A stretch of 64,000 nucleotides of DNA from an uncultured Coriobacteriaceae bacterium (GCA_944322175.1 CALUOB010000002.1:29078-93077); one strand, 5' to 3'; counted from the stretch's first letter, positions 10,568 through 60,119 are shown. Made by a program: numbers and translations. The notes: generated from the letters alone by a model not told the origin.

Positions 10568-12205
10568 TCAGGCGCTGGCCTTATCCCAGACAACCGTCCC
10601 CTCTTTGATCGTTTTAAGGGTCTGAATAGTTCGGATCTCGTCCGCAGGTACTTCAAGCGGATTACGATCCAGGACTGCCAGATCGGCGAGCTTGCCCACT
10701 TCAAGCGTGCCCTTGCGATCCTCTTCGCCATACTGATACGCAGCATTTGCCGTAACACCAAGCAGAGCATCGTAGGCGCTCACGCACAGGGAGCTGTCAA
10801 GTTGAACGCCGTTCTTGGTGCGACGGTTTACCGCACTCCAGACCGACAGCATCATGTCGTTCGGGACGATGGGGGTGTCGTTGTGCAGGGTAAAGCGCAG
10901 GCCGCGATCCTTTGCCCAAGCACACGCAGAGATCTGCGATCCGCGTTCTTTGCCGAAGTTCTTAAGGTGTACATCGCCCCAGTACCAGATGTGACTCGAG
11001 AAAATCGAGGGTATCATGCCCAGTTCTGCCATCTGGTCATACTGGTCTTCACGTGCGGTTTGGCAATGGATCATAACGGGTCGCAGAAGGTGCTTATCAG
11101 GGTTGGGGGAGTCGTTCAGCGCTTTTCGGTAGCACCGAAGCAGCTGATCAGCCGCGGCGTCTCCGTTGCAATGCGTGAGAAGCTGATGGTTAGTGTCGAT
11201 GGCTTGGCGGCATACTCCGTATACCATGTCGTCGTTCATGGCTCCAAAGCCACAGTAGTTGGGATCGGCGTCCGGCCCATCGGGAAGGTAAGGCTTCGAC
11301 ATCCAGGCTGTCCGACCCTGAGGAGAGCCGTCAAGAATCATTTTGTGTCCGCCTATGCGCAGCCTTCCCTTGTAAGTTGACGCATCGTACTCTGGGTTCT
11401 GCTCGCACGTGCGTTGGGCCGACAGCCCCATTGCCGTTACCGGGTATGCGACCACGTCTAGCGCCAGTCTGTTTGCGCTGTCGCCCCACCTGAGGAGCGC
11501 CTCCCATGCATCGCCGCCCGAAGCTCCGTCCTGGCACGTGGTAATGCCATATCTGAGATACAGATCTTGCATTCCGTCGAGCAGGCGATCGTAGTCGATC
11601 GAGAAGCGCGGTGCTATTACGCGCGCGCTGATAGGCGCAAGTGCTGCGGGTTCTTCCCAGGGGCCGGCTGGGGCTCCTTGAGCGTTCCGTACGTAATGAC
11701 CGCCTTCGGGGTCGGGCGTCTCTTGGAAGATGCCCGCGAGCTGATAGGCGAGGGTGTTGGCAGACCCTAAATGCCCCGAGACGTGGTTGATGACGACAGG
11801 GATGTTAGAGGAAACGGTATCGAGTTCGCTGGCAAGAGGATGTCTGCCTTCTTGAAGGGCGTTTTGGTCGTACCCCATACCGACGGCAACGCCGTCTGGA
11901 CCGATGCCCTGAGCCTCAATCCCGTGGCGCATCAGGTCGAGAAGCTCAGGAATGTTGCGTGCGCTGCCGAGCTGGATGTAGGCGAGGGCCTGTGCGGTCA
12001 TCGTGAAGTGGCTATGCGGGTCAATGAAGCCAGGGAGGACGGTTGCACCGTCAAGGTCAACGAATTCTGCCTCGGGCGCAATGGTCTTTGCGTCTTCTAG
12101 GCTTCCGCAGAAAACGATTGTGCCCGAATCGTCAGATACAAGAGCTTCGGCACGATCGGATTCTGAGGTCATGGGGACGAACGTCGCATTAAAGAAGAGT
12201 TTCAT
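10568..12205 (-). CDS. Amidohydrolase-family (Amidohydro_3 / YtcJ-like) metal-dependent hydrolase
   Basis: 545 aa. N-terminal LPGFIDPHSHF (HxH metal site), HCNGDAA, and C-terminal GTLEVGKLADLAVLDRNPL, all typical of this family. Confidence 0.8.
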   Translation of the reverse strand: MKLFFNATFVPMTSESDRAEALVSDDSGTIVFCGSLEDAKTIAPEAEFVDLDGATVLPGFIDPHSHFTMTAQALAYIQLGSARNIPELLDLMRHGIEAQGIGPDGVAVGMGYDQNALQEGRHPLASELDTVSSNIPVVINHVSGHLGSANTLAYQLAGIFQETPDPEGGHYVRNAQGAPAGPWEEPAALAPISARVIAPRFSIDYDRLLDGMQDLYLRYGITTCQDGASGGDAWEALLRWGDSANRLALDVVAYPVTAMGLSAQRTCEQNPEYDASTYKGRLRIGGHKMILDGSPQGRTAWMSKPYLPDGPDADPNYCGFGAMNDDMVYGVCRQAIDTNHQLLTHCNGDAAADQLLRCYRKALNDSPNPDKHLLRPVMIHCQTAREDQYDQMAELGMIPSIFSSHIWYWGDVHLKNFGKERGSQISACAWAKDRGLRFTLHNDTPIVPNDMMLSVWSAVNRRTKNGVQLDSSLCVSAYDALLGVTANAAYQYGEEDRKGTLEVGKLADLAVLDRNPLEVPADEIRTIQTLKTIKEGTVVWDKASA

Positions 12206-12253
12206 TTCAAGCTCCTGATTGATAAAGTCACTGCTGATAAGGTGCGAAAGCGC

Positions 12254-13891
12254 TTACTTCGCGCTCGAGCGATCCTTGGTTACCAGTCTCGTTGTCAGAG
12301 AACCGGCGAGGCAAATGCAGAACGATGTTGCCATGGCAGCCCTAATGCCGTCCACGCGCGCCTGTTGGTACAGCGAGGTGGCTTCCGAAGTCGCTTCTTC
12401 CGAAACGCCGGTTCCCTCCCAGCGCTTTTGGAAACTGTTGTCGCTTTCAAGCTGGAGGGGCGTAGCTAAGACCGTTTGCGAGGCCTCAGACGTTACTCCT
12501 TCGATGCGGGGGAGTTCGGTTTCCATGGCCCCTGAAATCCAGGACAGCATAATGGTTCCCAACAGCGCGACGGCGATTGCCTGACCCGTATTGCGGCACG
12601 TTGCCTGGACACCTCCGGACTGGGCTGCGTTTCGCTCATCGAGCGCAAGGGAGATAATGGGGCCTGCCTGTGAGGCTACGGCGCCGGCGCCAAAGCCCGC
12701 AAGTGCAAATCCTGCCACCATGAGGGGCAACCTGAGCCCTCCCGGCACAAAGGACAGCGCCAGCAGCACGATCGATGCAAGCACGACTAGGTAGCCGACG
12801 AGAAGGACCGTCTTGTGCTTCACGGTGGGGAATACGCGCGCAATGCCCAGAGATGCGGCGAACATGGTAATGCCGTACACGATTGAGACGACGCTCGTGG
12901 TCAGAGCCGACATGCCCATGACTACCTGCAGGTACGGCGTGACCAAGATAATCTGCATGCCCATAAAGAAGAAGCTTACCGTGCAAGCGCAAAGTCCAGT
13001 GAGGACCTGTGGCTCACGCAGAAAGGCGCTCGGCAGGAGGCAGCCGCCGTGGCTCTTTTCGATGTCCCTTTCGACACGGACGAGCGCGGCAAGCAAAATG
13101 ACACCGAGGACGATGAGGAGAGGCGCGGGGGAGATTCCCGCAATGGAGAACGGTGCTGCGGAGGTCGCGATAAACAGACCCCAACTTGTGATGTTGGAAA
13201 GGCCGACGATGAGGAAGAAGAGACCGCTCGCAGCAAGGCCGGCGCCAATGCCGTCGAAGCGCATGCTCTGCGCGTCGGAATTGATGGCGGGAAGTTTGAA
13301 TGAGCCGAGGAGAACGACCAGAAAATAGGTTCCGAGTACGCCAAAGGTGAAGCGGAAACCGGTAACATCGAGAAGAATTCCCAGAACGATGGGGAATACG
13401 ATGGAGATTCCCGAAGCGGAGGCAACGCCGCCATATGCGATAGCGCGATGCTGCTCAGAATGCCAGATCTTGGGAACAAGGCCGAGCATGGAAGGGATGA
13501 GAAGGCTTGCCCCGAGACCTACGAGCAATCGGCCGCACCACGTGAGAACAAACATATTTGGGGCAAAGGCAGCGGCAAACTCGCCAATCGCCGCAAGCGC
13601 CGCGCCGATGCGGAAGTTTCGTTTCCAACCGAGGATAGTTCCCAGCATGCCGCCTACGATCATACATGCTCCTGCTACGAGCGAGTACACCGTATTGAGC
13701 ATCTGGATCTCTGACGTGCTGGCTCCAAGCGCGGTGGTGATTGCACCCGTTGCGATCGACAACGTTCCGTTGTCGCCCGAGGTGCCAATCTGGGCTGCCA
13801 TAAGTAGGACGAGGGGAAGGGCATAAAACTTCTTGTTTCCGCCGGGATCGAGTTGCTGGGACGCTACTGCTTCCTTCATGGGCTGCTCCAT
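12254..13891 (-). CDS. MFS transporter, 14-TM drug:H+ antiporter (DHA2)-like
   Basis: 545 aa, hydrophobic throughout with about 14 predicted helices. GGMLGTILGWKRNFRIG resembles MFS motif A. The start may be the internal Met at codon 5. Confidence 0.75.
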   Translation of the reverse strand: MEQPMKEAVASQQLDPGGNKKFYALPLVLLMAAQIGTSGDNGTLSIATGAITTALGASTSEIQMLNTVYSLVAGACMIVGGMLGTILGWKRNFRIGAALAAIGEFAAAFAPNMFVLTWCGRLLVGLGASLLIPSMLGLVPKIWHSEQHRAIAYGGVASASGISIVFPIVLGILLDVTGFRFTFGVLGTYFLVVLLGSFKLPAINSDAQSMRFDGIGAGLAASGLFFLIVGLSNITSWGLFIATSAAPFSIAGISPAPLLIVLGVILLAALVRVERDIEKSHGGCLLPSAFLREPQVLTGLCACTVSFFFMGMQIILVTPYLQVVMGMSALTTSVVSIVYGITMFAASLGIARVFPTVKHKTVLLVGYLVVLASIVLLALSFVPGGLRLPLMVAGFALAGFGAGAVASQAGPIISLALDERNAAQSGGVQATCRNTGQAIAVALLGTIMLSWISGAMETELPRIEGVTSEASQTVLATPLQLESDNSFQKRWEGTGVSEEATSEATSLYQQARVDGIRAAMATSFCICLAGSLTTRLVTKDRSSAK

Positions 13892-14140: not shown

Positions 14141-15259
14141 ATGAGCGAGAATAAGAAGATCAGGGGAGCAGAGCGCATTGTAAAGGGCTGGCGCGCTATG
14201 GGATGGAAGCCCTGGCGACCTTTGGTGGGTGTATGGCGTCCGGGCGCAAGTCCCAACGAGGTGGCAAAAGCGCTGGCCATGATGGGGCCGAGCCAGAAGC
14301 TCGGCGTGATTTATCTGCCCAAGGGGGTTAAGGTTCGCAAAGGGCGCGTGACCGGTTTTATGCTCAAGCCCGGTACCGACACCTGGCAGCGCGTTATCAC
14401 GCGTGTGCCCGACATCATCGACACATCCAATTTGTGCTGGAAGCACAACAAGCCCGCCCTCGAATACTTCGAGGAGCATTGCTGGTGCTCGAATCTTAGA
14501 AAGAATCGCATCAACAAGCGACGTTTGCAAGATCTTATGCGCAAGGATGAGGCGGTGTCTCGCTACGCTATCCCGTCAGAAACAATCAAGACTGCGCGTC
14601 AGTTTGAGCGCTTTGTGCACAAGCACAGAGACGTCGTTGCTAAGCCGATCTTCTCGCAGCGCGGCTTGGGCGTCCATCGCGTTCGCCTCATAAGCGAGAA
14701 GAACGGTGAGACGGCCTATTTGGTTGGCTTCAAAACGTCCGAGCGCCGTCTGACGTCCGAAGAATTCGAGCGCTACACCCAAAAGCATTTTATCAAGCCT
14801 GCGCATGTGGCCCAGAAGTACGTGTCCTCTCGTTCTGCTGCTGGAGATCCCTTCGACTGCCGCGTTCATGTAGAGAAAAACGGCAGAGGGGAGTGGGAGA
14901 TCGCCTCGATGCTGGTGCGTATTGGTATCGGCCAGACGATTATCTCCAACATCAATCAGGGCGGTGGAATGGCGGAGATCGAGCCGTTCCTCAAGGCAAA
15001 TCGTCCAGATAATTGGCAGCAGATCCTGCGCGACCTCAAGAGCATGGCGAAAATCGTTCCCTCGTGGTTTGAAAGCAAGCGCGGCGTCGAGATGATGACT
15101 CTCGGAATCGATACGGCTATCACCGACGAAGGCGACCTGCATATCTTTGAGATCAACAGCCTGCCGTTTACCGATTTCAATTTGGGCCAAGTTGCGATCA
15201 GGCGTGTTGCGTACTATCGCTGGCTTGCTGACAACCGCGTGAGAACGCATCGCAAGTAG
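14141..15259 (+). CDS. YheC/YheD-family ATP-grasp ligase
   Basis: 372 aa. VVAKPIFSQRGLGVHRV, DCRVHVEKNGRGEWEI, ISNINQGGG and DLHIFEINSLP (the E-x-N Mg site) follow the YheC/D ATP-grasp layout. Confidence 0.65.
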   Translation: MSENKKIRGAERIVKGWRAMGWKPWRPLVGVWRPGASPNEVAKALAMMGPSQKLGVIYLPKGVKVRKGRVTGFMLKPGTDTWQRVITRVPDIIDTSNLCWKHNKPALEYFEEHCWCSNLRKNRINKRRLQDLMRKDEAVSRYAIPSETIKTARQFERFVHKHRDVVAKPIFSQRGLGVHRVRLISEKNGETAYLVGFKTSERRLTSEEFERYTQKHFIKPAHVAQKYVSSRSAAGDPFDCRVHVEKNGRGEWEIASMLVRIGIGQTIISNINQGGGMAEIEPFLKANRPDNWQQILRDLKSMAKIVPSWFESKRGVEMMTLGIDTAITDEGDLHIFEINSLPFTDFNLGQVAIRRVAYYRWLADNRVRTHRK

Positions 15260-15310
15260 AAGGTCTTGGCAGGGTTCTTAGTGAAATCATCGAGAGTGAG
15301 AAGAGTGTCG

Positions 15311-17233
15311 ATGACCTCCGAGTACGAATACAAAGCGCCTAGCTATCGTTTGCACGAGCCTCGCATGAGTCCAGAGGATCTTTCTGCTGCACCTGCTCGC
15401 TTCTCTTTCAGCGACGGACGATGGGTTCCTGTGTCTCCATTGCCGGGGGCACGTCCTGGCAGGGCTCGCGTTCTCATAGCCGGAGATTTGCTCTGTCAGG
15501 AGGGTATGACTGAGGCGTTTCGGACTAAGGCGGGTCGCTTTGATTTCTCGTTGTGCTTCGAAGCGGTTCGTCCCGTGCTGCAGGCCGCTGATCTCGTGAT
15601 TGGCAATCTCGAGACGCCGGTCGATGAGTGTGCGCCGTACCGCGGGGAGATTCTCACGCATGAGGGGCCGTTCTTTTGCAACGCCCCGGTAGAGTATCTT
15701 GCTGCGCTTCGTAACGCCGGATTCGATTGCCTTACCACCGCCAACAATCATACGCTTGATGCCGGCGTGCACGGGCTCTTTGAGACCATAGACAATGCAC
15801 GGAGTCTTGGTTTCATCCAGACAGGCACTTTCCGAGAAGGCAACGAGCGTTTTGCAGTTGTGGAAGTCGCAGGCATTACGGTTGGCATTGCGGCGTTTTC
15901 CACGGGTTTTAACCGCATGGATCGCAACCTGCGACAAGAGGCGCGGGAAACTCTCCTCAACATGCTGAGCGTAGACAGGGCGCGTTCGGTACTAGAACGT
16001 ATGCGCGAGAAGGGCGTAGAGGTTGCCCTGTGTATCCCACACTGGGGCACCGAGTATTCAACAAAAGTTGCTGCAAAGCAGCAGGAGCTCGCTCGCAAGC
16101 TTGTTGATATGGGGTACGACGCAATTATCGGAGCTCATCCCCATGTGTTGCAGCCTTTTGAGGTTGTGAGGGGCGTGCCGGTTGCCTACTCGATAGGCAA
16201 CTTTATCTCACATTTAAATCTCAAAGGAGAAGCGCGCAAGGACGCTTCTTACACCGTGCTTGCCGAACTTGAGCTTGAGCGAGGCGCGAACGGAAAGGTT
16301 GCGGTTTCTACCCGCTTTATTCCTTGCTTCATTACGCGCGATGTCGGGGGAGCTCCCTTCGCAGTCATTGCCAAGAGTTCCAACATTGAGATCCCGTCAT
16401 CAATGTCGTCTGATTTTGATGCAATGCTCAAACGCGTTCAGCAGATTATGGGTGCCGGCGGCGACGTGCTTGATCTATCTGCTCCCGTTACCGATGGATG
16501 CGATGTTGGTGGACAGGCATGGCGCAGGCAGGCTGAGAACTTGAATGAGCCGACTGTAGACGAGGAGCTGCTCTTGGCGACTAAGGCAATGAGGAAGGTG
16601 GCTCGGAAGGCGAAGGCGCGCTACAAAGGCAAAGCTGATTACGTGGTTACCAGAAGCGCTGTCTATCGCAAGTTCTCGGACCATGCCGAACTTGTTAGCC
16701 TGTTCAGTTCGAGCAGTGTTATTTCCCTGCCCAGTAGCGTAAGAGGACTTGATGTTACCAGAGTATGCGATAACGCAGCTGATGATGGTATGCCTGCGCG
16801 CGTTATCTATCTAGGCAAACATGTTCGCGAGATCGGAAACAATGCGTTTCGTGGACTTCTGAAGCTGGAGAGTGTCCGCATGTTCACAGAGGTCGAGCGC
16901 ATCGGCGACCGCGCTTTTGCCGACTGTCCAAAGCTCACGGGCGTGATTGTTTCTCAGGGAGTGAAAAGCATTGGTTCCGAGTGCTTTGCTCGCGACGGCG
17001 CGCTCTTGAGTGTAAAGATACCGCCTAGCGTCAGGGAGATCGCAGCAGATGCGTTTAAGGGTAGCGATACTGTGACGGTCTATGGAGAGAAAGGCTCCTT
17101 TGTGGAGCGGTTTGCCAAGAGTTATCGCGTACCGTTCTTCGCCATGCTGTTGCCCCGGAAGCTGGATATTGGGCTTCGAGCCAGAAAGTTTTTTTATCGA
17201 GTTAGGGCAGTGCTACCAGCTCGCGGCAAGTAG
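15311..17233 (+). CDS. CapA/PGA_cap (metallophosphatase-fold capsule-synthesis) domain fused to BspA-type leucine-rich repeats
   Basis: CapA motifs: IAGDLLCQ, GNLETP, TTANNHTLDAG, PHWGTEYS, IGAHPHVLQP, YSIGNFISH. The C-terminus has repeated x-I-G-x-x-A-F-x-x-C units (REIGNNAFRG, ERIGDRAFADC, KSIGSECFARD, REIAADAFKG). Start moved to the ATG at 15311 by analogy with its paralog. No signal peptide seen. Confidence 0.75.
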   Translation: MTSEYEYKAPSYRLHEPRMSPEDLSAAPARFSFSDGRWVPVSPLPGARPGRARVLIAGDLLCQEGMTEAFRTKAGRFDFSLCFEAVRPVLQAADLVIGNLETPVDECAPYRGEILTHEGPFFCNAPVEYLAALRNAGFDCLTTANNHTLDAGVHGLFETIDNARSLGFIQTGTFREGNERFAVVEVAGITVGIAAFSTGFNRMDRNLRQEARETLLNMLSVDRARSVLERMREKGVEVALCIPHWGTEYSTKVAAKQQELARKLVDMGYDAIIGAHPHVLQPFEVVRGVPVAYSIGNFISHLNLKGEARKDASYTVLAELELERGANGKVAVSTRFIPCFITRDVGGAPFAVIAKSSNIEIPSSMSSDFDAMLKRVQQIMGAGGDVLDLSAPVTDGCDVGGQAWRRQAENLNEPTVDEELLLATKAMRKVARKAKARYKGKADYVVTRSAVYRKFSDHAELVSLFSSSSVISLPSSVRGLDVTRVCDNAADDGMPARVIYLGKHVREIGNNAFRGLLKLESVRMFTEVERIGDRAFADCPKLTGVIVSQGVKSIGSECFARDGALLSVKIPPSVREIAADAFKGSDTVTVYGEKGSFVERFAKSYRVPFFAMLLPRKLDIGLRARKFFYRVRAVLPARGK

Positions 17234-17291
17234 AGTCTTGCCGCGAGCTTTCCGTTGGTAATCGCGCCTCTGTCGTTAGCAGGGCGCTTGT

Positions 17292-18464
17292 TCAGCAGGT
17301 TGCTTGCCATAAAATTGCCGCGATGGCAAGCAGGATCAAGATCGTTGGGCCGACGTTTTGTTTCTCGCCGTGATGGAAAGCTACGCGTTGGAGCGCCCGA
17401 TTCTGAAATTGTCGGTATTGTCGGTCCACAAAATCCGATGAAAAGATAATGACCGTCAGCATCGAAGAAATTGCTGCGATTATGAGGGATCCCGTTGAGG
17501 CAAGAGGGTACAGCACCGCACACGTCAACGAAACAAACCTGTGAAAAAGATAGACTGTCAAAGAGTGGCGCCCAGCTTTTGTGATTATCGGGACAGGGCG
17601 ACTAGGCACTACCATCAAGATACCAATTGTTATGAGCGTCGCGCTCAAAAGAAGAAGAAGTCGGCGAAGCATATCAATAGTGCGATTGTCGGCGTAGGCG
17701 TACATCAGCTCGTCTCCGGTATTGAGCTCCATGCGCACGATCAGGAGGACCGCCAAGGCGGAGCCCAAAACTATTAATGCGGCTCCAGCTAGCGACGAAC
17801 GCGGGGAGCCCAGTGTGCCCCGTACCTTCTCTCTCAAGTTCAGCTTATTGAAATAGTAGCCACTCAAGAAGAACGGGTAGAACGCAATGGTTCGAGACAG
17901 TGCGAGTTGATTTGAGATGTCCGTAGTGAATCCGACTGCCAAAGAAAACGCTATGGTTGCGGGCAACGCCATTGGCGACCGAACAATGAGGGGCAGAGAG
18001 AGTCTCCACCAAATTAGTGCCAACAGGTACCAGTAAGAGTAATAAGGAGTGAGCAGCTTGGGTGTGGTGCCGTATACAGTAAAGCAGTAGAGCATCATGA
18101 TGGAGTTGAAGATGATATATGCAAAGAGGATCTGGGTTATCCCTTTAAAAAGAGAGGGCTCAAATCTGTCTTTACTGAAGTAGCCAGAGATGAAGATGAA
18201 CGCCGGCATATGGAAGGAGTAAATTAACTGAACGACGGGACCGATGAACGACTCGTCGCGGTAAGCCCATAAGCCATGGCCGAACACTACGAGTACGATG
18301 AGGATGCCTTTTATGGTGTCAAACGAAGGGTCTCTTTCGCTGCGCTTCTTCTTTGCTATGACAGGGCACATCTTATGCTTCTCAATCTTCGAATAGAGAC
18401 AGTCAGAACCGAATATGTCTAGGCGAGAGGGGAGAAAAGACGAGCGAAGCGCTAAGTGCCGCAC
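17292..18464 (-). CDS. Acyltransferase family 3 (membrane O-acyltransferase)
   Basis: Polytopic membrane ORF with the N-terminal FDTIKGILIVLVVFGHGLW motif of acyltransferase_3. The GTG start at 18464 is uncertain; an ATG at 18371 is an alternative. Confidence 0.75.
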   Translation of the reverse strand: MRHLALRSSFLPSRLDIFGSDCLYSKIEKHKMCPVIAKKKRSERDPSFDTIKGILIVLVVFGHGLWAYRDESFIGPVVQLIYSFHMPAFIFISGYFSKDRFEPSLFKGITQILFAYIIFNSIMMLYCFTVYGTTPKLLTPYYSYWYLLALIWWRLSLPLIVRSPMALPATIAFSLAVGFTTDISNQLALSRTIAFYPFFLSGYYFNKLNLREKVRGTLGSPRSSLAGAALIVLGSALAVLLIVRMELNTGDELMYAYADNRTIDMLRRLLLLLSATLITIGILMVVPSRPVPIITKAGRHSLTVYLFHRFVSLTCAVLYPLASTGSLIIAAISSMLTVIIFSSDFVDRQYRQFQNRALQRVAFHHGEKQNVGPTILILLAIAAILWQATC

Positions 18465-18490
18465 TTCGCTCGCTGGTCAACTTCTGCCTA

Positions 18491-21400
18491 TCATCGCTTG
18501 CTGAACAACCTGTTGAATAACCCTTTCTTCTTTGGCTTCTCTTCGGGGTCATGGAGCTCGTCTCGGATGGGCTTCGCTTCCTCGATGACGATTGGGTCTA
18601 GCTTGGTCGGGGTAATTCCTGCAAGCCGTTCAATATCGAAGAGATACGGTTCATACATGAACTTGCGGCCAACTTGGTCGGGGGACTGCATTACATCGAA
18701 TCCTGGCAGGCAGTTGCCTTCCACGTACTCGATTGTGTGATTCTTGGTGATAGCGATGTCCCAGCCAATGTGCCGTGTTTCTGGCATGCGCTTGGCACAG
18801 TCCAATACCGCTTTTTTAATCTCATCCCACATCGGGTACTGGAACCCGAGAATCGCTTTTCCGGAATCTGGGTGGACGGGGCTCCGCTGGTGATACATGT
18901 CGATTGCCTCGGAGATGATCACGCCCGATTCTATGTCGACAACTGCACCAACGCCGCCGCTATGGAAATTGTCGGCAACGTTACCAGACCTGCCAAAACG
19001 TGCCGTTGCCAGCGTAATGCGAGGCGTACCGTCAGCGCAGAGCAAAGTAGTCACTCGCACGGTATTCAGCGTGCTCGCGTTGAACTCTGCAAGTTCGTCG
19101 CATTGCTGAATAAGTTCTTCGCAGACGAGCTTCTCACTGCGACACATTCTATAGACTTCAGCTACGTCGCGATCTGAAGCATCGACCACGCGCGCTCCGG
19201 CGCCTCCCGCGCCATCGGGCAGCTTCGCAAAAAACCGCGGATGTTTGTGGACAAACTGCTCGAATTCTTCAAAGGAACAGGTCTGCGAGACGAGCCAGTC
19301 GCGTTGGACGTAATCGGGGAATAAGGCGTTGAACTCCCTTTTCGAAAACAGGTGTCGAAGCGAGGTGGGGGTGCACGCTTTTGCAACGCGACGCCGGTAT
19401 CCCGCATTCAGAAAAGTGTCGCGTACCTCGGGCTCCTTGTTATAGAGCTCGTAAACGAAGTAGCAATGATGACCGAAGCCGCGATCCCAGGCGTACATGA
19501 TGTAGTCAGCAAAATAAACCGTGAGATCGGTGGTGGTTAGCCTCATGGTTTTTTGCATGCGGTATTCTTCGACAAAATTTCGATACCGTCGTTTTAGCTC
19601 TCTGTAGCTTACGTGCGGCATCTTATCTTTAAGCAGATAGTTAATTTCTCCGAGATATCCGGAAAAACGATCTGCCCCGAGATAGTGTGACGGTGCAAAT
19701 GCACATACCGCATCTTGAGGCAACGGTGCCCCGAGTGCCGCGCAGACAGAGCGAATGGTGGCGGGGTGCGGATCATGAGGACCATTCATTGGCCCCATTT
19801 TAACCTGTGGCAATCGTAGGTGATCAGATGACGAAGGCGTCGGAAGCGGACGGTCTCTGTCCTTCCGACAGTCTATCGATAGCCGGGCGCCTATTCTTCC
19901 CTCGCGCGTCAGCGGCATTCGGGTAAAGCTAATGCCGTGCTGTTTTGCATAGACTTCGGCGAAAGAACCTCTCTCTCCGTAAATGGCGATTTTGGGGCTA
20001 TCTTCAAAAGCATCTGAGGCAATGTCTACCACGCTGGGTGGGATCTTTGCGCTAAGCAGCTTGGGACAATTTGCAAAAGCGCGGCTGCTGATGCTAGTCG
20101 TTGAATCAGGGATTATTATTCCCGTGAGCCTGGGGCAGTCGGCAAAAGCTTCTGTGCCGATTGATTCGAGGCCGGTAAACAGTCGTGCGCTTTCGAGCAG
20201 AGGAGAGCCGGCGAACGCCCTGTCGGCAATAGTGCGAACATTGGCGCCAACATAAACGATTCTCGTGTTCTTGAGCTCTCCAAGACAATTAGATGCCTTG
20301 CGGACTGGCTTTTCATTGACTGTTTTGGGAATTCGAGCAACAGTAGTCGAGTCGATCCATCCAAGCGCCTCGGCGACGTTGTTTTCGACAGTAATGAGGC
20401 AATTATTCTGGAGAGTGCAGGTTTCCGGGGAGTAACCGTGCTCCTGCAGCTTACGGCAAATGTCTTCAGGGATGAGAGTGCTGGGAAGAGTGACGTTATG
20501 CTCGTGTTTTGGGGAACTGGCAAGGTTGTTGACAGCATCGTTCCATGTCTGACTGCCGATAGCGTAGGAAGAATGTGGAGCCGATAGTTCCAACATACTC
20601 TCATCAACATTAAGCAAAGCTGCAACTCTCTCTTGGGTTTCTCGGGAGTCTCCCGCTTGGTCGAGAGGAGACGGGGTTGCAGGAAGGACTACGAATGGAG
20701 CGCCTTGGATATCCTTGGCAATGCGACACGGGATAAACTTTACTTGTGCAGATACGTTGCCAGACGAGTTCTTGCTGAGATCCAGGGCGCAGAGGGTGGT
20801 GTACTGTGCGTTGCGCCTGTTCTCAACAAGGTTGAGGTGCGAGATTAAGTTACCTACCGAGTAGGCCACTGGCTTCTTATTGACATAGTCGAACTTCTGT
20901 AAAACATGGGGGTGCGATCCAATGATGCAGTCGTAACCCATGCGAGTTAATGAGGAGGCTGCATCTATCTGCTTCTCATTCAGTTCAAGACTGTACTCTT
21001 TGCCCCAATGTGGGAAGCAAATTGCGTACTCAACTCCGCAGTCCCGCATTTCTTTCAGGATCGTCTTCGCCAGTTTGTCTGAGTAGGTATTGAGCAGAGT
21101 CGTTCGTCCGGCTTTTTTAAGGTTCCAGTCCATGCGATTGTACGTGAAGGAGAAAGCCGTCAGCCCGACGCGGATGCCGCAGACGTCGACTACACAGAAC
21201 CTCTTGCCAGCGTTCTTGAATGTTCCGGTCTGGATAAAGCCGAGTTCCCGTGCATTGTCGATTGTGGCTACAAGTCCATGGTATCCAGCATCGAGGGTGT
21301 GGTTGTTTGCCGTGGTTAGGGCATCAAAACCCGCATTGCGGAGTGCTGCCAAGTATTCGAGGGGGGCATTGCAATAGAACGGACCCTCATGGGTGATAAT

Positions 21401-21736
21401 CTCACCACGATACGGTGCGTTTTCGTCAATAGGAGTTTCGAGATTGCCGATTGCCAAATCTGACGAGTTGAGAATCCCCTCAATCTGGCTGAAGCAGAGG
21501 GAGAAATCGAAGCCACCGTGCGAGGTTCGATACCCATCGATCATGTTTTCCTGACAGAGCAAATCGCCAGCAATGATGATGCGAGCATGTTCCTTTTGAG
21601 AAGGTTTGAGCTGGCTCCACACGTCTTGATCGCAACGAAAGCGGGGCGTTTTCGTGGAGAGTGCCGCAGGGGAGACGCGGGGTTCTCTCAGCTCATAGCT
21701 TGGGGACTTGAATTCAAACTGGTTTCTTGAGGGCAT
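18491..21736 (-). CDS. Three-domain fusion: CapA/PGA_cap + BspA-type LRR + sugar-transfer-associated ATP-grasp (ATPgrasp_ST)
   Basis: The N-terminal two thirds are paralogous to 15311-17233 (IAGDLLCQ, GNLETP, TTANNHTLDAG, PHWGKEYS, IGSHPHVLQ, then LRR units TIADRAFAG, ESIGTEAFADC, TSISSRAFANC). The C-terminal part (NTVRVTTLLCADGTPRITLATARFGRSGNVADNFHSGGVGAVVD...VHPDSG...IGWDIAITKNHTIEYVEGNCLPG) matches the ATPgrasp_ST layout. Start chosen at the ATG at 21736 (aggag 10 nt upstream); the track ORF extends to 21856. Confidence 0.75.
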   Translation of the reverse strand: MPSRNQFEFKSPSYELREPRVSPAALSTKTPRFRCDQDVWSQLKPSQKEHARIIIAGDLLCQENMIDGYRTSHGGFDFSLCFSQIEGILNSSDLAIGNLETPIDENAPYRGEIITHEGPFYCNAPLEYLAALRNAGFDALTTANNHTLDAGYHGLVATIDNARELGFIQTGTFKNAGKRFCVVDVCGIRVGLTAFSFTYNRMDWNLKKAGRTTLLNTYSDKLAKTILKEMRDCGVEYAICFPHWGKEYSLELNEKQIDAASSLTRMGYDCIIGSHPHVLQKFDYVNKKPVAYSVGNLISHLNLVENRRNAQYTTLCALDLSKNSSGNVSAQVKFIPCRIAKDIQGAPFVVLPATPSPLDQAGDSRETQERVAALLNVDESMLELSAPHSSYAIGSQTWNDAVNNLASSPKHEHNVTLPSTLIPEDICRKLQEHGYSPETCTLQNNCLITVENNVAEALGWIDSTTVARIPKTVNEKPVRKASNCLGELKNTRIVYVGANVRTIADRAFAGSPLLESARLFTGLESIGTEAFADCPRLTGIIIPDSTTSISSRAFANCPKLLSAKIPPSVVDIASDAFEDSPKIAIYGERGSFAEVYAKQHGISFTRMPLTREGRIGARLSIDCRKDRDRPLPTPSSSDHLRLPQVKMGPMNGPHDPHPATIRSVCAALGAPLPQDAVCAFAPSHYLGADRFSGYLGEINYLLKDKMPHVSYRELKRRYRNFVEEYRMQKTMRLTTTDLTVYFADYIMYAWDRGFGHHCYFVYELYNKEPEVRDTFLNAGYRRRVAKACTPTSLRHLFSKREFNALFPDYVQRDWLVSQTCSFEEFEQFVHKHPRFFAKLPDGAGGAGARVVDASDRDVAEVYRMCRSEKLVCEELIQQCDELAEFNASTLNTVRVTTLLCADGTPRITLATARFGRSGNVADNFHSGGVGAVVDIESGVIISEAIDMYHQRSPVHPDSGKAILGFQYPMWDEIKKAVLDCAKRMPETRHIGWDIAITKNHTIEYVEGNCLPGFDVMQSPDQVGRKFMYEPYLFDIERLAGITPTKLDPIVIEEAKPIRDELHDPEEKPKKKGLFNRLFSKR

Positions 21737-21882: not shown

Positions 21883-24783
21883 CTATCTATAGGTGACAAC
21901 TTTGGTGCCGTAGGGAATGTTGTCGTAAATCCACTTGGCGCGGTCGAGGGGAAGTCGAACGCAGCCTTGAGATATGTTCACGCCCATCCTTCCATCCATG
22001 ATGTTGAAAGTGCCTTGGTAAAACGTATTGGAGTGAATGAGGTAGTCTCCATAGAACTGCGTGTAGTAGTAACAGGTGTAGCCATGTCCAAAGGAATACC
22101 CTTTGCCTGTGACCGTGTATTGACCCAGGACGGTTGGGGTACTGTAGGCGCCGGTGGAACATATCCAGAACTTACTTTGATTCCAGGCGCCGGCACGTCC
22201 CCTGTAGACCCCAAGATAGTTGTTGGTTGTGTCTACGAGGATGAGCCAATTGGTGGAGCTGCTGTAGCGCTGGGCCTTGCTGGCCATCTTGGACTGAACG
22301 GGATTGACTTTGGTTTTTCCGCTTGTTCCAAATGAGTACTTAACGCCGTCAATTGTATGTGTACCTGTGTACATGATGCCGTTAGATCCGAAGTAGGACC
22401 ATTTCCCGTCCGAATTCCAGTACAGCCAGCCAGTATGCATGGAGCCGTCGCTGTCAAAGTAGTACCGCTTACCATCTATGGTCTGATTGCGAAGCAGCGC
22501 CCTGCGGCGCACGTCGGACGGGTTGAAGTAGTAGCGCTTGCCGCCGATGGTCCACCAGCCCTTGCCGGCCGCTCCGCCGTGCTTGGGGGAGAAGTACGAG
22601 CGCCTCCCGTCCGTCCAGGTGTGCCATCCGGTCTGAACTGCCCCGGTCGAGCCGAAGTAGTAGTACTTGCCGTCAACGGGGTTGCCGTAGCGGTACGCGC
22701 GGCGGCTGTCCCCGAAGTAGTAGCGCCTGCCGCCGAGGGTCCACCAGCCCTTGGCGGCCGCTCCGCCGTGCTTGGGGGAGAAGTACGAGCGCCTCCCGTC
22801 CGTCCAGGTGTGCCATCCGGTCTGGGCGGCGAAGGTCTTGTCGTCGAACAGGTAGAGGGAGCCGTCGATCCATTGCTCGTCGGAGAGGGCCCTGCGGCGC
22901 ACGTCGGACGGGTTGAAGTAGTAGCGCTTGCCGCCGATGGTCCACCAGCCCTTGCCGGCCGCTCCGCCGTGCTTGGGGGAGAAGTACGAGCGCCTCCCGT
23001 CCGTCCAGGTGTGCCATCCGGTCTGAACTGCCCCGGTCGAGCCGAAGTAGTAGTACTTGCCGTCAACGGGGTTGCCGTAGCGGTACGCGCGGCGGCTGTC
23101 CCCGAAGTAGTAGCGCCTGCCGCCGAGGGTCCACCAGCCCTTGGCGGCCGCTCCGCCGTGCTTGGGGGAGAAGTACGAGCGCCTCCCGTCCGTCCAGGTG
23201 TGCCATCCGGTCTGGGCGGCGAAGGTCTTGTCGTCGAACAGGTAGAGGGAGCCGTCGATCCATTGCTCGCCGGAGAGGGCATAGCCATCTTCGCCGAAGT
23301 AGTAACGCTCTCCGTCAACCTCTGCCCATTCGGAAGAAGCCCATGAGCCGTCGTCTTTTACCAAGCGCAAGCCAGACTCATCGAACACGAGGTTGCGTTG
23401 CGGGATGGAGACCGAGGAGATTGCCTCCGCATCGGCAATGCCGAGCTTTTTCAAGTTGCTCTCTTCTTTAAGAAATGCAGCGTCAGAAGCATTGTCAATA
23501 AAACCATGCTCGATAAGAACTGCCGGAATCCCGTATTTTCTCGAGTTTCGAATTACTGACAAATAGTCCCCTGCGCTTCCGTCAGGGTTGCTGGAGTGGT
23601 AATCGGACATGAGTCCGCGGCTGTCAAGCCCCAGCGCTTCAAGCTTATCGATGATGTTGTTTCCAAGGGTTTCACCAAACTCGTGAAACGATGAATACCA
23701 GGTACTTTTTGCTGGGATCCAGACCTCTACACCTTGGCCACCACCAGAGTCGATGTGGAAGCTGACGAACAGGCGGGCATTCTCCCGTCGGGCTATATCA
23801 ACTCGCTCTTCAAGACCTACGTAGGAGTCGTCGGTCCGCGTCATGAGAACGTCGTAGTTGTTCGACTCGAGCTCATCTTTGCAATAGCTTGCAATTTTAA
23901 GATTGATCTCTGACTCGACTATTCCATTGGCTTCCGCGCCGGAATCCCACCCTCCGTGGCCAGGATCAAGGGCAATCGTAGATGAAGTTGCTTCAGACAT
24001 TGTGCTAGGGACAGAGGCTTCTGCATCGTTTATCGCGTCTTCGAGGCTGTCGCTGCTGCCTACCTCGCCATTGGAATTAACGGTCAAATATGTCGAGTCG
24101 ACGTCCGTGGCCTGTGCGTCGCCGTTTGGGAGCACGACAAAGGTTGCTGAGTCCGCTTGATCAGAAATGTCTACTGTAACTGTCTGCCGCGCATTCGAAT
24201 ATTCAAGCGCAACAAGACCATATGCGGTTGAAGCGGTGTTTTCGTCACAGACTATCTCGAACAGCAGGGCATCGTCAGCGAAGGTAGCGGCAGAGACTTC
24301 ATAGCGATTGCCGTCAAGGTCGCAGTAGGTCAACGATGCCGAGATGGGCGCTGATCCATCTTCAAGGCCCACAGCGATTCTTTCAACGGAGCCAATTCTG
24401 ACTTCGGGAGACTCAATATAGAGGAAAGCGATTGCATCACGAGAGGACTTCTGAGAAACCAGCGTCTCGTTATTTGCTGTTTCGAGGTGTTGTTCGGATT
24501 CCTCGGCAGCGTCGAGGGGCTCTTTTTCGGAAGACTCTAGCTCTATTGAATCTTGCTCAGGGGCTTCCGTTGCGGTGCCGTCGGTGTCTTTGGCTGGAGA
24601 CGCTCCACGTACGTCGGCCGCCTCAGCACTTTCGTCTCGATCGGTGTTTTGGAATACCGTGGAGTCGGTTTCCTGAGAGAGGTCATCTGCGTACAAAGTG
24701 GGGCAGAACCAAACAATAGCGGTAAAGATAAAGAGCATCAGCAGGATAGTGCGGCCAATGGGTGCAGCGGTTCGTTTCGTCAT
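21883..24783 (-). CDS. Secreted N-acetylmuramoyl-L-alanine amidase (Amidase_3) + cell-wall-binding repeats + C-terminal L,D-transpeptidase (YkuD) domain
   Basis: Start at the ATG at 24783 (GGAGG upstream) gives a signal/anchor sequence MTKRTAAPIGRTILLMLFIFTAIVWFC. Amidase_3 motifs: IALDPGHGGWDSGA...LFVSFHIDSG. Choline-binding-type repeats: GWHTWTDGRRSYFSPKHGGAA, GKRYYFDSDGSMHTGW. YkuD motif: YLIHSN...SQGCVRL. Confidence 0.85.
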   Translation of the reverse strand: MTKRTAAPIGRTILLMLFIFTAIVWFCPTLYADDLSQETDSTVFQNTDRDESAEAADVRGASPAKDTDGTATEAPEQDSIELESSEKEPLDAAEESEQHLETANNETLVSQKSSRDAIAFLYIESPEVRIGSVERIAVGLEDGSAPISASLTYCDLDGNRYEVSAATFADDALLFEIVCDENTASTAYGLVALEYSNARQTVTVDISDQADSATFVVLPNGDAQATDVDSTYLTVNSNGEVGSSDSLEDAINDAEASVPSTMSEATSSTIALDPGHGGWDSGAEANGIVESEINLKIASYCKDELESNNYDVLMTRTDDSYVGLEERVDIARRENARLFVSFHIDSGGGQGVEVWIPAKSTWYSSFHEFGETLGNNIIDKLEALGLDSRGLMSDYHSSNPDGSAGDYLSVIRNSRKYGIPAVLIEHGFIDNASDAAFLKEESNLKKLGIADAEAISSVSIPQRNLVFDESGLRLVKDDGSWASSEWAEVDGERYYFGEDGYALSGEQWIDGSLYLFDDKTFAAQTGWHTWTDGRRSYFSPKHGGAAAKGWWTLGGRRYYFGDSRRAYRYGNPVDGKYYYFGSTGAVQTGWHTWTDGRRSYFSPKHGGAAGKGWWTIGGKRYYFNPSDVRRRALSDEQWIDGSLYLFDDKTFAAQTGWHTWTDGRRSYFSPKHGGAAAKGWWTLGGRRYYFGDSRRAYRYGNPVDGKYYYFGSTGAVQTGWHTWTDGRRSYFSPKHGGAAGKGWWTIGGKRYYFNPSDVRRRALLRNQTIDGKRYYFDSDGSMHTGWLYWNSDGKWSYFGSNGIMYTGTHTIDGVKYSFGTSGKTKVNPVQSKMASKAQRYSSSTNWLILVDTTNNYLGVYRGRAGAWNQSKFWICSTGAYSTPTVLGQYTVTGKGYSFGHGYTCYYYTQFYGDYLIHSNTFYQGTFNIMDGRMGVNISQGCVRLPLDRAKWIYDNIPYGTKVVTYR
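22501..23280. repeat. Near-perfect 2 x 390-bp tandem duplication inside the wall-binding repeat region
   Basis: 22501-22890 and 22891-23280 are identical as far as I can read, except for one position (t at 22880 versus c at 23270). Each unit contains two copies of an approximately 85-bp core (ccaccagccctt...ccatccggtctg). The block is clearly more GC-rich than the rest of the gene. Confidence 0.95.
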
Positions 24784-25196
24784 GCGACCTCCGTCCACAA
24801 TAATAAATCCAGTTAGGTAGATAGTAATACGATGGAAGAGGTGCGGCGAAGTGGGTAATGTCGAAATGTAACAGTTGGATATGGCGCGTTCCGCAGCGCG
24901 CCTGCTGCTTGTGACGGTTTCCTGAGAGTGTTCGGGAACAGCTGGGCTAGACAGTCCATGCACGGCACGCACATGCCTTGAAGCGGCTCCAAGAGCATCT
25001 TTCGCTGAGGGCTCCATCGTTTGACGGGCGGCTTACGCACCGTACGAGTTTGATGGGGTTACGTCACCGTTGGGGAGTCTATTTTGCCCGTTTGCAAGTG
25101 ATCGTCATTGTAGCTTGGTTTCAGCTGCTATTCTAATTTCTTAAGTGTCGGTTATCTCGCCATATGACGTATGGCATAGGGACGGAGGGATTAGTC

Positions 25197-31742: not shown

Positions 31743-31796
31743 CGTGTAACGGATGCCGTGTCGTGCTGTGATTTGCACAGCAATAGCTCTTCTAGG

Positions 31797-31831
31797 GAGG
31801 GGCGCGCCGAAACGGAGGCGCCCCTCTTTTT
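31797..31831 (+). terminator. Rho-independent terminator after the giant exoprotein gene
   Basis: gaggggcgc (31797-31805) pairs perfectly with gcgcccctc (31818-31826), with a 12-nt loop, followed by ttttt (31827-31831). Confidence 0.85.
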
Positions 31832-31850
31832 CATATCCGACAAGCCGTAT

Positions 31851-36714: not shown

Positions 36715-36719
36715 GGTTG

Positions 36720-37316
36720 ATGAGATACATCATCATGGCTAACGGCGCTGCAACGCGCTGGGGGAACTACCTTGGTGTGCCCAAGCATCTCGCTCGTGTG
36801 GGGGAAGAGACGCTCTTGGAGCGCACGGTGCGCTTGGTTGGGGCTGCTTCTCCTGATGCTGAAGTCGTTATCAGCGCGCATGATGAGCGCTACCGAGTTA
36901 AAGGCGCGCGCTTCTATACCCCTCTTCGAAACGACTACGAGATCGATCGGTTTGTCTTGGAGCTTCTTGACGAGCCTTGTTGCTTTTTGTATGGCGATGC
37001 ATGTTATACACCCGAAGCGATCGACACCATTTGTGCTGCGGGTGGGAGCAGCGACTTGCTCTTTTTTGGGAGTTCGAGTCGAATCTTTGCCGTCAAGGTG
37101 TTTGCCCCCGAGGTTGCTGCTAGCCTGTTGCGAGACCTGCGCGCAGAGATCGAAGAGGGCTCTATTCCCGACTGTAAAGGATGGCAGCTCTATCATCGCT
37201 ATCTCGGTATGCCCCTAGAGGGCAAGGCGATTGGCGACGATTACGTGCTGATCGAAGACGGAACGACGGATTTTAACACGCCGAGTGAATACGAGGCGTA
37301 TTTGGGGAATCGGTAG
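36720..37316 (+). CDS. Nucleotidyltransferase (NTP_transferase / IspD-TarI-LicC-like), probable activator of a polyol- or sugar-phosphate
   Basis: Start at the ATG at 36720 (track ORF begins earlier in frame). N-terminal IIMANGAATRWGNYLGVPKHL matches the G-x-G-x-R...PK-x-L signature of nucleotidylyltransferases. Located between the ATP-grasp gene and tagG. Confidence 0.55.
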   Translation: MRYIIMANGAATRWGNYLGVPKHLARVGEETLLERTVRLVGAASPDAEVVISAHDERYRVKGARFYTPLRNDYEIDRFVLELLDEPCCFLYGDACYTPEAIDTICAAGGSSDLLFFGSSSRIFAVKVFAPEVAASLLRDLRAEIEEGSIPDCKGWQLYHRYLGMPLEGKAIGDDYVLIEDGTTDFNTPSEYEAYLGNR

Positions 37317-48914: not shown

Positions 48915-49040
48915 AAAGATGCGCGTGCGGGCGCGGAGGGGCTTAGCCTGGCCTCTTGCGCCCGCTTTCTCGCACGGCGCGCGAAGGGCAGGGCCCCTGC
49001 TCGCATGTTGAGGCGGCGCCGAGGGCGCCAGGAGGTGTAC

Positions 49041-60110: not shown

Positions 60111-60119
60111 GGCAAGCGC

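Follow-up and report, generated by a model that had tools for sequence, protein, structure and literature searches.

We analyzed a 64,000-nt stretch of DNA from an uncultured Coriobacteriaceae bacterium (GCA_944322175.1 CALUOB010000002.1:29078-93077; referred to here as the window, with coordinates counted from its start). The window contains two paralogous genes for CapA proteins with leucine-rich repeats (LRRs): one lies next to a gene for an ATP-grasp ligase of the YheC/D type, and the other is fused to an ATP-grasp domain of the ATPgrasp_ST family. Both are in a wall-polymer gene island of ~25 kb (about 14.1-39.0 kb of the window) that has, in total, four intact ATP-grasp ligase domains and two CapA-LRR modules. 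Based on domain searches, structure prediction, and the neighborhoods of related genes, we believe that there is about an even chance (a probability of roughly 0.5) that the island specifies a line of enzymes that would first ligate and then epimerize amino acids on an exported wall polymer.

CapA-LRR proteins and their ligases

The fusion of CapA and LRR domains to an ATP-grasp domain was genuine and recurrent. A preliminary description of this DNA, made from the sequence alone, had reported such a fusion, and matches to all three Pfam families were found in a single gene product (Table 1), with PGA_cap (the CapA domain) at ~nt 20837-21580, LRR_5 at ~19991-20269, then a conserved helical pre-domain, and ATPgrasp_ST at ~18671-19288. 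The preliminary description had also named an assembly or frameshift artifact as a possible origin of the fusion, and this was ruled out. At 90% identity, the fusion clusters with sequences from NCBI, ENA, and Logan assemblies that were made independently; the cluster has 19 members, most of which are called as 1081-aa proteins. The same architecture (PGA_cap+LRR_5+ATPgrasp_ST) occurs in more than 25 further clusters, at 38-54% identity, from Clostridia and Coriobacteriia, and an alignment of 22 fusion sequences was collinear throughout, with a mean column identity of 52%. Among species-representative genomes, full-length fusions were found in a Bacillota metagenome-assembled genome (MAG), Acutalibacteraceae, Lachnospiraceae, Anaerofustis butyriciformans, and an uncultured Slackia, the closest match being 46% identical to the fusion in the window. 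When the 640-aa CapA-LRR protein was used in a representative search, giant multi-repeat LRR_5 surface proteins dominated and ~18 of 150 matches spanned both CapA and LRR; this search samples the family and is not a census of it.

CapA and the ligases most likely work together, as the preliminary description had proposed from the physical fusion. A split counterpart is present in the cultured Anaerostipes sp. 992a, at about 79-92 kb of NZ_MJIG01000003.1, and in one metagenome (loci L012 and L069), in which a CapA-LRR gene is directly followed by a gene for ATPgrasp_ST plus LRR_5. Fused and split forms of the same proteins are the classic pair behind a Rosetta-stone inference. In addition, a ligase gene adjoins the CapA-LRR gene in most relatives. 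Based on these results, we place the odds that CapA and the ligases cooperate in a cytoplasmic peptide-forming pathway considerably above even.

The YheC/D ligase gene is followed by the standalone CapA-LRR gene, as first described, and the latter starts 51 nt 3' of the former. The ligase has an intact Mg-binding motif (E337-x-N339) and no transmembrane (TM) segment or signal peptide; its top NCBIfam match, a weak one, is the glutamate ligase MptN. In the CapA-LRR protein, which also has neither a TM segment nor a signal peptide, the MslH-like PGA_cap domain (see below) corresponds to ~nt 15470-16213 and LRR_5 to ~nt 16805-17068, and the motifs GDLLC, GNLET, ANNHTLD, HWGTE, and HPH are all intact. 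The assignment of the N-terminal domains to PGA_cap was checked for both proteins and held (3.9e-63 for the standalone protein and 4.6e-55 for the fusion). The standalone and fused CapA-LRR units are indeed paralogs: they are 47% identical over 623 aa, starting from residues 3 and 45 of the longest open reading frames (ORFs). These maximal ORFs begin further upstream (15266, TTG; 21856, ATG), and some gene callers give a 1121-aa form of the fusion. Because the paralogs align from their very N-termini and an AGGAG sequence lies 9 nt 5' of the ATG of the fusion at 21736, we favor the start codons of the preliminary description over those of the longer ORFs. N-terminal to the CapA domain, a YE[YILVW]K-x-P-x-Y motif (e.g., at 15311-15370 of the window) is near-universal in the cytoplasmic CapA-LRR family; E8 and K10 of this motif are invariant in the fusion alignment.

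The absence of a membrane anchor was a property of the family. Hydropathy analysis found no segment resembling a signal peptide or a TM segment ahead of either CapA catalytic domain, in agreement with the preliminary description, and the soluble ligases likewise have none. The ~105 closest relatives also lack an N-terminal signal or TM segment, whereas distant classical CapA proteins carry one. Fusion to an ATP-dependent ligase requires a cytoplasmic location for CapA and the LRR, and the apparently cytoplasmic LRRs that had been pointed out as atypical are found family-wide. In this they differ from BspA-type LRR surface proteins, which have a signal peptide or surface anchor; here there is none, and LRR_5 lies between a cytoplasmic epimerase-like domain and an ATP-grasp domain.

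CapB and CapC are absent from the window, as the preliminary description had stated. There were no matches to Mur-ligase or CapC families in ORFs of at least 150 aa throughout the 64 kb, and tblastn searches of the window with Mur-ligase-containing relatives matched only CapA and LRR portions. The stretch from 10.5 to 39 kb is densely filled with genes, leaving no room there for capB or capC. The proposal of a CapB-independent pathway thus stands for the window, but some related clusters do fuse CapA to Mur-type (MurF-like) ligases.

The fusions of CapA-LRR to Mur-ligase domains sometimes include VanY/LdcB-like or S11/beta-lactamase-type domains, and the Mur domains score best against MurF (127-245 bits), with the PgsB and CapB families absent among the matches listed. 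In one cluster (L007), MurF-like ligases lie alongside Ddl, a Glu/Asp racemase, and an ABC-2 exporter. MurF, Ddl, VanY, and S11 enzymes all work at the C-terminus of peptides, where the residue is often in the D-configuration, and this fits an epimerase acting on a residue with a free carboxylate. A Slackia locus (L010) has two YheC/D genes, an LRR-CapA gene, a CapA-Mur-ligase gene, an Acyl_transf_3 gene, and a fusion. In locus L001 (14839-17283, minus strand), CapA is fused directly to a MurF-like ligase and its motifs are degenerate (GNLTS for GNLET and ANPY for ANNH); this protein may be an inactive scaffold that is paired with the intact LRR-CapA protein encoded next door.

Kinship of the CapA domain to the epimerase MslH

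The closest characterized relative of the CapA domains was a peptide epimerase. The only solved structures that match the CapA domain by sequence (8gq9, 8gqa, 8gqb, 8itg, and 8ith) were deposited as 'poly-gamma-glutamate synthesis protein' but are in fact MslH, which is the only characterized structural relative. MslH converts the C-terminal L-Trp of MslA, the precursor of the lasso peptide MS-271, to D-Trp and binds one Ca(II) (PMC10406935). In a profile search of the PDB with ten CapA domains, MslH came first (8.9e-23), followed by the phosphoesterase YfkN (2.7e-07). A search of the PDB with Foldseek, using an AlphaFold2 (AF2) model of the fusion (pLDDT 85.3, pTM 0.79), gave MslH for all of the top four matches (E=5.5e-16, 449 aligned columns, template-modeling score normalized to the target, TM(target), of 0.52). 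These were followed by LRR proteins and then 5'-nucleotidases, and the C-terminal domain matched Ddl, PsnB, and glutathione synthetase (GshB).

The catalytic residues of MslH appeared to be largely conserved. The Ca(II) ligands of MslH are E44, N87, H259, and H261, and it has two His/Asp dyads, H88/D91 and H295/D11 (PMC10406935). In HMMER alignments, E44, N87, H88, D91, H259, and H295 correspond to E100, N145, H146, D149, H243, and H277 of the fusion, all of which are invariant among the 22 fusion sequences. D58 of the GD motif is also invariant; it lies outside the HMM alignment and is the presumed equivalent of D11. Counting D58 as this presumed equivalent, seven of the eight catalytic and metal-binding residues of MslH are invariant in the fusion family. 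Other invariant positions include E247, H275, and, in the ATP-grasp domain, the catalytic Lys K838 and E1006 and N1008 of the E-x-N motif. A list of 'degenerate motifs' produced by regular expressions consisted mostly of the upstream GD motif matched twice, and we did not count these as degeneracy.

The preliminary description had treated CapA as a partner of CapB and CapC in poly-gamma-glutamate (PGA) synthesis. The view of CapA as an accessory with an undefined role is outdated, given the kinship to MslH (PMC10406935) and the effect of pgsA on the stereochemistry of PGA: in Bacillus subtilis, pgsBC without pgsA gives PGA with a D/L ratio of 5/95, compared with 75/25 with pgsA (PMC6029982). 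The discoverers of MslH proposed CapA as an epimerase by which D-Glu is introduced into PGA (PMC8179263). Based on the kinship to MslH and the shift in D/L ratio upon loss of pgsA, the fusion is best read as a ligase plus an epimerase. For the CapA domains of the window themselves, an epimerase role is perhaps slightly more probable than not.

The alternative that survives best, although still unlikely, is that the CapA domains are metallophosphoesterases. They would dephosphorylate a ligated amino-alcohol-phosphate or phospho-amino acid, or trim a pyrophosphate or phosphodiester in a teichoic-type intermediate, and ligation followed by dephosphorylation is the logic of capsule amidation in Campylobacter. 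PGA_cap has the calcineurin-like fold, for which phosphoesterase activity is the ancestral chemistry of the superfamily, and 5'-nucleotidases and 2',3'-cyclic phosphodiesterases come next after MslH among the matches by structure and by sequence. These matches, however, are far behind MslH (3e-7 versus 9e-23 in the PDB profile search, and 3e-9 versus 5e-16 with Foldseek), and the literature searched reports no phosphatase activity for the CapA family, whose only characterized relative is an epimerase. The locus is rich in phosphodiester chemistry (Glyphos_transf, NAGPA, purple acid phosphatase), but the recurrent fusion partners of CapA (MurF-like, VanY, and S11-type) are enzymes of peptide C-termini and not phospho-enzymes.

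The wall-polymer island and a possible ligation-epimerization route

The CapA-LRR modules were surrounded by genes of a teichoic-type pathway (Table 1). On the minus strand, the fusion and the acyltransferase gene follow a gene for a protein with Amidase_3 and YkuD domains, which a 147-nt divergent intergenic region parts from a plus-strand operon. After its first gene, for a giant secreted protein, the operon has two further ATPgrasp_ST genes, a gene for a TagF-like polyol-phosphate transferase, a gene for a MobA-like nucleotidyltransferase that would probably activate a phospho-donor, and genes for an ABC-2 permease and a TagH-like ATPase, which together are the predicted exporter of a lipid-linked polymer. 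The TagF-like protein matches TarB (7.7e-27) and TarL (1.1e-23) in NCBIfam; all of the teichoic-type NCBIfam matches (TagH-type, TarB, and TarL) are below their equivalog cut-offs.

Table 1. Features of the window, in order of position.
Feature	Coordinates	Strand	Evidence and remarks
YheC/D-type ATP-grasp amide ligase, 372 aa	14141-15259	+	Pfam ATPgrasp_YheCD 2.9e-44, 151.7 bits
Standalone CapA-LRR, 640 aa	15311-17233	+	PGA_cap (PF09587) 3.9e-63; LRR_5 2.2e-16
Membrane O-acyltransferase, Acyl_transf_3	17292-18464	-	Pfam 3.8e-25; about 7 or more TM-like segments
Strong terminator-like hairpin	18440-18473	-	13-bp stem, 8 G-C pairs, T-rich tail; consensus scan only
CapA-LRR-ATPgrasp_ST fusion, 1081 aa	18491-21736	-	PGA_cap 4.6e-55; LRR_5 2.1e-16; ATPgrasp_ST 6.8e-40
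Amidase_3 + choline-binding repeats + YkuD L,D-transpeptidase	21883-25017	-	One TM segment near residue 83
Giant secreted protein, 2192 aa	25164-31742	+	NAGPA phosphodiester glycosidase, purple-acid-phosphatase/Metallophos, choline-binding, fn3, GH85_C; first gene of operon
ATPgrasp_ST protein, 930 aa	31758-34550	+	Pfam 8.9e-33; intact C-half (E882-x-N884)
TagF/TarB/TarL-like polyol-phosphate transferase, Glyphos_transf (PF04464)	34547-35668	+	Pfam 7.1e-42
Stand-alone ATPgrasp_ST ligase (ST3), 350 aa	35662-36714	+	Pfam 1.1e-36; E318-x-N320
MobA-like nucleotidyltransferase, NTP_transf_3 (PF12804)	36651-37316	+	Pfam 4.3e-07
ABC-2 permease	37325-38131	+	ABC2_membrane 4e-16; NCBIfam Wzm/KpsM-like permease
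TagH-like ATPase	38121-39014	+	ABC_tran; NCBIfam TagH-type 3.3e-66
DEAD/Helicase_C protein	56491-58935	-	In possible defense-type run
LytTR-domain protein	58932-60110	-	In possible defense-type run
BREX (bacteriophage exclusion) BrxC/D ATPase	60120-61496	-	Pfam 6.4e-169; in possible defense-type run
Unannotated ORF, 692 aa	61493-63571	-	In possible defense-type run

Four of the ATP-grasp domains in the island were intact. The YheCD and ST matches are above the Pfam gathering thresholds, with 137.4, 114.1, and 126.9 bits for the ST domains, and the E-x-N motif is present in the YheC/D ligase, the fusion, the C-half of the 930-aa protein, and ST3. The N-terminal 600 aa of the 930-aa protein (31758-33557) have no Pfam match and are collinear with the 350-aa ST ligase, with E-x-N changed to R-V-D. 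From this alignment, the N-half is probably a cryptic, inactive ATP-grasp-like domain; the degenerate N-half is kept in orthologs at L006, L008, and L011. The nearest named families to the ST domains are RimK-related alpha-L-glutamate ligase-like proteins (TIGR02291).

The membrane O-acyltransferase gene follows the fusion, as first described. An Acyl_transf_3 gene also adjoins the fusion in L001, L002, L010, and L015, and is ~0.7 kb downstream of it in L008. In the window, the terminator-like hairpin is directly 3' of the stop codon of the fusion and overlaps the annotated GTG start of the acyltransferase. The true start is probably downstream of this GTG and may be at Met32, or the hairpin may provide read-through control.

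The association of CapA-LRR genes with teichoic-type genes was found in other taxa. In L008 and L011, the fusion is again accompanied by the TagF-like gene, the 350-aa ligase, the nucleotidyltransferase, and the 930-aa ligase; in L001, it is accompanied by the first three of these. Orthologs of the 350-aa ligase are 72% identical in L001 and 50-51% identical in L008 and L011, and those of the nucleotidyltransferase are 43-58% identical in these three loci. The TagF-like gene is conserved in L001, L004, L008, L011, and L068. Pairs homologous to the ABC exporter were found in L004, L007, L013, and L014, and ABC pairs annotated by Pfam in L067 and L068. Another recurrent set, in L004, L006, L007, and L068, consists of Glyphos_transf or LicD, a CTP-transferase, and an ABC-2 exporter. 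In L004, the fusion has three Glyphos_transf genes and TagD on one side and additional ATP-grasps and an ABC-2 exporter on the other. L068 repeats the full parts list, with two tandem CapA-LRR paralogs, three ATP-grasps, Glyphos_transf, a cytidylyltransferase, LicD, and an ABC exporter, and this cluster ends with a GH85_C secreted protein. Some clusters have embedded transporters, a Na+/glutamate symporter (Glt_symporter) in L012 (8397-9788) and L069 (6430-7809) and an AA_permease in L010 (923-2359), which hint at the amino acids used.

The island appears to have been acquired horizontally, based on its low GC content between high-GC flanks (51-57% over ~10-40 kb, compared to about 65-67% or, more broadly, 62-69% in the flanks) and on the relatives of its genes, which are mostly from Clostridia. 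The only named relatives of a flanking ECF (energy-coupling factor) ATPase are from Slackia faecicanis and a Slackia sp. MAG (61-62% identity). Taken together, these comparisons suggest that a Slackia-like Coriobacteriia host took up the island from Clostridia. A search of the island borders for tRNAs and integration sites gave zero tRNAs, and no integrase was seen there. A scan for promoters was not above chance (5 sites, compared to 6.7 expected).

Other genes in the window are outside this system. A D-aminoacylase role for the adjoining Amidohydro_3 and MFS (major facilitator superfamily) genes (10568-13891) was rejected; their matches are only to generic amidohydrolases and DHA2 efflux proteins, and we excluded them. 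A gene for a secreted-type non-specific endonuclease (Endonuclea_NS_2) adjoins one for a Fic/DOC-family protein with a helix-turn-helix (HTH) domain (49005-51399), and there is a possible defense-type gene run at 56491-63571 on the minus strand (Table 1).

Based on this context, the island could encode a route that ligates and then epimerizes. The ATP-grasp ligases would activate a carboxylate on a growing peptide or side chain that is carried by a teichoic-type or polyol-phosphate polymer linked to a lipid, and would attach L-amino acids to it by amide bonds. The CapA domain, as a mononuclear-metal epimerase of the MslH/PgsA type, would then invert the new residue, with its free alpha-carboxylate, from L to D. 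The LRR would be a docking module for the substrate or a partner, a role that we liken to that of MslB1, which binds the leader peptide of the precursor and enhances the MslH reaction. The finished polymer would be exported by the ABC-2 (TagGH-like) transporter, O-acylated by Acyl_transf_3, and remodeled by the secreted amidase/YkuD and phosphodiesterase proteins. The outcome would be D-amino-acid peptides on a wall polymer, made without CapB/CapC, nonribosomal peptide synthetases (NRPSs), or Dlt. The even odds given above apply to this model as a whole; attachment of the peptides to a teichoic-type polymer, taken by itself, falls a little short of even odds.

Several observations weigh against this model. 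The best named NCBIfam family for both CapA domains is epimerase_MslH (NF038314), but the scores are 58.7 and 48.9 bits and the cut-off is 700. The Ca(II) ligand H261 of MslH is replaced by G245 in the canonical CapA motif HWGxE, with the invariant E247 and H275 nearby. Because of this replacement and the scores far below the equivalog cut-off, we infer epimerase activity for the proteins of the window at the level of the family, and an epimerase role of CapA itself is likewise a proposal. No TagO, TagA, or TagB linkage-unit or primer enzymes and no LCP (LytR-CpsA-Psr) ligase were found among the annotated ORFs of the window, and the model names no specific acceptor carboxylate. The fusion in L003/L009 and L005 has no teichoic-type genes within 10 kb. 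Lastly, a lone CapA-LRR subtype (L013, 9980-11848; L067, 8001-9869) has no adjacent ligase and may have a different function, e.g., on free peptides or amino acids. The genes for this subtype lie between a Na/Ca exchanger (plus a Na/Ala symporter in L067) and genes for a Fer4 protein, a beta-eliminating lyase, and an FAD/pyridine-nucleotide-disulfide oxidoreductase (plus thioredoxin in L067).

The preliminary description had left the product as either a poly-amino acid or a peptide decoration. The TagF/TagGH-type island, with its two additional ATPgrasp_ST genes, points to a teichoic-type polymer decorated with peptides more than to a capsule of free poly-Glu or poly-Asp, and we consider it rather unlikely that the ATP-grasps polymerize a free anionic homopolymer analogous to PGA, with CapA acting as in PgsBCA and the teichoic-type genes being mere neighbors. 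Such a product would agree with the similarity of the ST domains to TIGR02291 and of the YheC/D ligase to MptN, and with the Na+/glutamate symporter genes in L012 and L069. PGA is the known polymer of CapA, and the free alpha-carboxylate of each of its residues would suit such an epimerase. However, there is no CapC- or CapB-like membrane machinery in the window, the ligases and CapA proteins are soluble, and the Mur ligases of relatives are MurF-like. Four intact ligase domains from at least two families, plus two epimerase modules, suggest a defined heteropeptide instead, and the linkage to TagF/LicD, cytidylyltransferase, and ABC-2 export is consistent across taxa.

Modification of peptidoglycan precursors appears improbable. 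The ligases and CapA domains would add and epimerize side-chain or cross-bridge residues on UDP-MurNAc-peptide or lipid II, like D-Asp or D-iGln branches, and ATP-grasp branch ligases are known for peptidoglycan. The MurF-like ligases, Ddl, VanY/LdcB, and Glu/Asp racemase of relatives would fit, as would the position of the fusion downstream of the Amidase_3/YkuD gene on the same strand. But the module is in an island that is accessory, low in GC, and equipped with an ABC-2 exporter and a TagF-like polymerase of its own, and peptidoglycan precursors are not exported by a TagGH-type transporter. There are also several paralogous ligases and epimerases and a dedicated O-acyltransferase, and no MraY, MurG, or Fem-type genes are nearby. 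We regard as very improbable a system for a peptide synthesized by ribosomes and modified post-translationally (RiPP), in which an ATP-grasp and an MslH-like epimerase would modify a small ribosomal precursor: MslH is itself a RiPP enzyme and the Foldseek matches to the ligase domain include the RiPP ATP-grasps PsnB and 7mgv, but the intergenic gaps (including the 250-nt gap 5' of the YheC/D gene) have no plausible or conserved small ORF, the island has no genes for a leader peptidase, RRE (RiPP recognition element), or lasso cyclase or other precursor-B1/B2-C genes, the ligases are by sequence of the YheC/D and ST types and not the graspetide type, and the wall-polymer context is conserved.

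Comparison with known systems and significance

The proteins of the window share features with CapA/PgsA of the Bacillus PgsBCA(E)/CapBCA systems and differ in their setting. Both match PGA_cap (1e-55 to 1e-63) and have the motifs GD, GNLE, ANNHxxD, HWGxE, and HxH, both are partnered with an ATP-dependent amide ligase, and both probably control D/L stereochemistry (PMC6029982). Unlike CapA/PgsA, the proteins of the window are cytoplasmic, without an N-terminal membrane anchor, and have an appended LRR_5 domain, and their partners are ATP-grasps (MurF-like ligases in relatives) in a teichoic-type export cluster with no CapB/CapC in the window. Because a membrane anchor and CapB/CapC were looked for in the window and not found, we conclude that this is not a CapBCA/PgsBCA synthase; free PGA is an unlikely product.

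MslH (8gq9, 8itg) is the best PDB match by sequence profile and by fold and, like the CapA-LRR proteins, is a soluble cytoplasmic protein with a calcineurin-like fold and a single-metal site. The residue that MslH epimerizes has a free carboxylate, and an accessory recognition protein, MslB1, enhances the reaction; we compare the LRR to MslB1. The overall identity is ~15-16%, in addition to the loss of H261 and the sub-threshold scores described above, and here a ligase and LRR are fused, there is no RiPP precursor or lasso machinery, and the presumed substrate is a polymer-bound peptide of non-ribosomal origin. Based on the lack of a RiPP context and the score below the equivalog threshold, these proteins are not MslH orthologs. 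The most plausible reading is an MslH- or PgsA-like activity that is coupled to a ligase line of the stem-peptide kind and operates within a pathway of teichoic-type export.

The ligases resemble RimK-like, YheC/YheD (PF14398), and 'sugar-transfer associated' (PF14397) ATP-grasps, with scores above gathering thresholds and intact catalytic motifs. PF14397 and PF14398 are said to have been defined in the 2009 survey of Iyer et al., and PF14397 has reportedly been predicted, there and in the Pfam notes, to act in cell-surface polysaccharide synthesis. A fusion of a CapA-type domain or an LRR to a member of PF14397 or PF14398 is, as far as we know, undescribed. The literature searched contained no account of CapA/MslH-type domains fused to ATP-grasp or Mur ligases, of peptides built by ATP-grasps on teichoic-type polymers, or of a PgsBCA structure; the CapA-LRR/ligase arrangement is recurrent but undescribed in that literature.

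The proposed route has elements of both peptidoglycan and wall teichoic acid synthesis. As in the assembly of the peptidoglycan stem peptide (MurC-F, Ddl, racemases, and VanY), amide ligation would be stepwise, cytoplasmic, and ATP-dependent, on a nucleotide- or lipid-linked carrier, and would yield an L/D peptide; relatives of the module share MurF-like ligases, Ddl, VanY, and racemase with that pathway. Here, however, the D-configuration would arise after ligation, through an epimerase domain rather than the incorporation of free D-amino acids, and the carrier and export genes are teichoic-type (TagF-like and ABC-2) and not MraY/MurG/MurJ. The wall teichoic acid pathway (TagF/TarL, TagD/TarI, and TagGH) has in common with the island a Glyphos_transf enzyme, a nucleotidyltransferase, and a TagH-like/ABC-2 exporter, and, with Dlt, a polymer that is likely to carry D-amino acids. 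It differs in having TagO, TagA, TagB, and LCP genes, which the window lacks, and Dlt adds D-Ala esters outside the membrane, whereas cytoplasmic amides made by ATP-grasps with epimerases are proposed here.

The role of CapA/PgsA has been open for decades, in part owing to the instability of the PGA synthase, a membrane complex (PMC8179263). Soluble cytoplasmic CapA domains that are fused to a partner ligase make the hypothesis that CapA is an epimerase testable in vitro. If the proposed route is correct, it would be a new way of introducing D-amino acids into envelope polymers, in which an L-residue is ligated and then epimerized in place, different from a racemase plus a D-specific ligase (peptidoglycan), esterification by Dlt (teichoic acids), and the E-domains of NRPSs. 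The names 'CapA family' and 'poly-gamma-glutamate synthesis protein' in these taxa are no evidence of a PGA capsule, and a BspA-type LRR_5 domain need not lie at the cell surface.

Carriers of these genes live in the gut as commensals and include Lachnospiraceae, Oscillospiraceae, Anaerostipes, Anaerofustis, and Slackia-like Coriobacteriia; two of them, Anaerostipes sp. 992a and Anaerofustis butyriciformans HA2171, are in culture. A peptide-bearing surface polymer, if present, would bear on how the immune system recognizes these bacteria, on phage receptors, and on resistance to cationic peptides. More tentatively, gut Clostridia and Coriobacteriia might have a class of 'peptido-teichoic' wall polymers, made by a cytoplasmic line of separate amide ligases, either ATP-grasp or MurF-like, that is independent of NRPSs and ribosomes and scaffolded by BspA-type LRRs, with each ligase paired to an epimerase of the CapA/MslH type. 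If so, there would be a second, murein-like route for D-peptides in the envelope, and a soluble model that would prove the CapA/PgsA family to be peptide epimerases.

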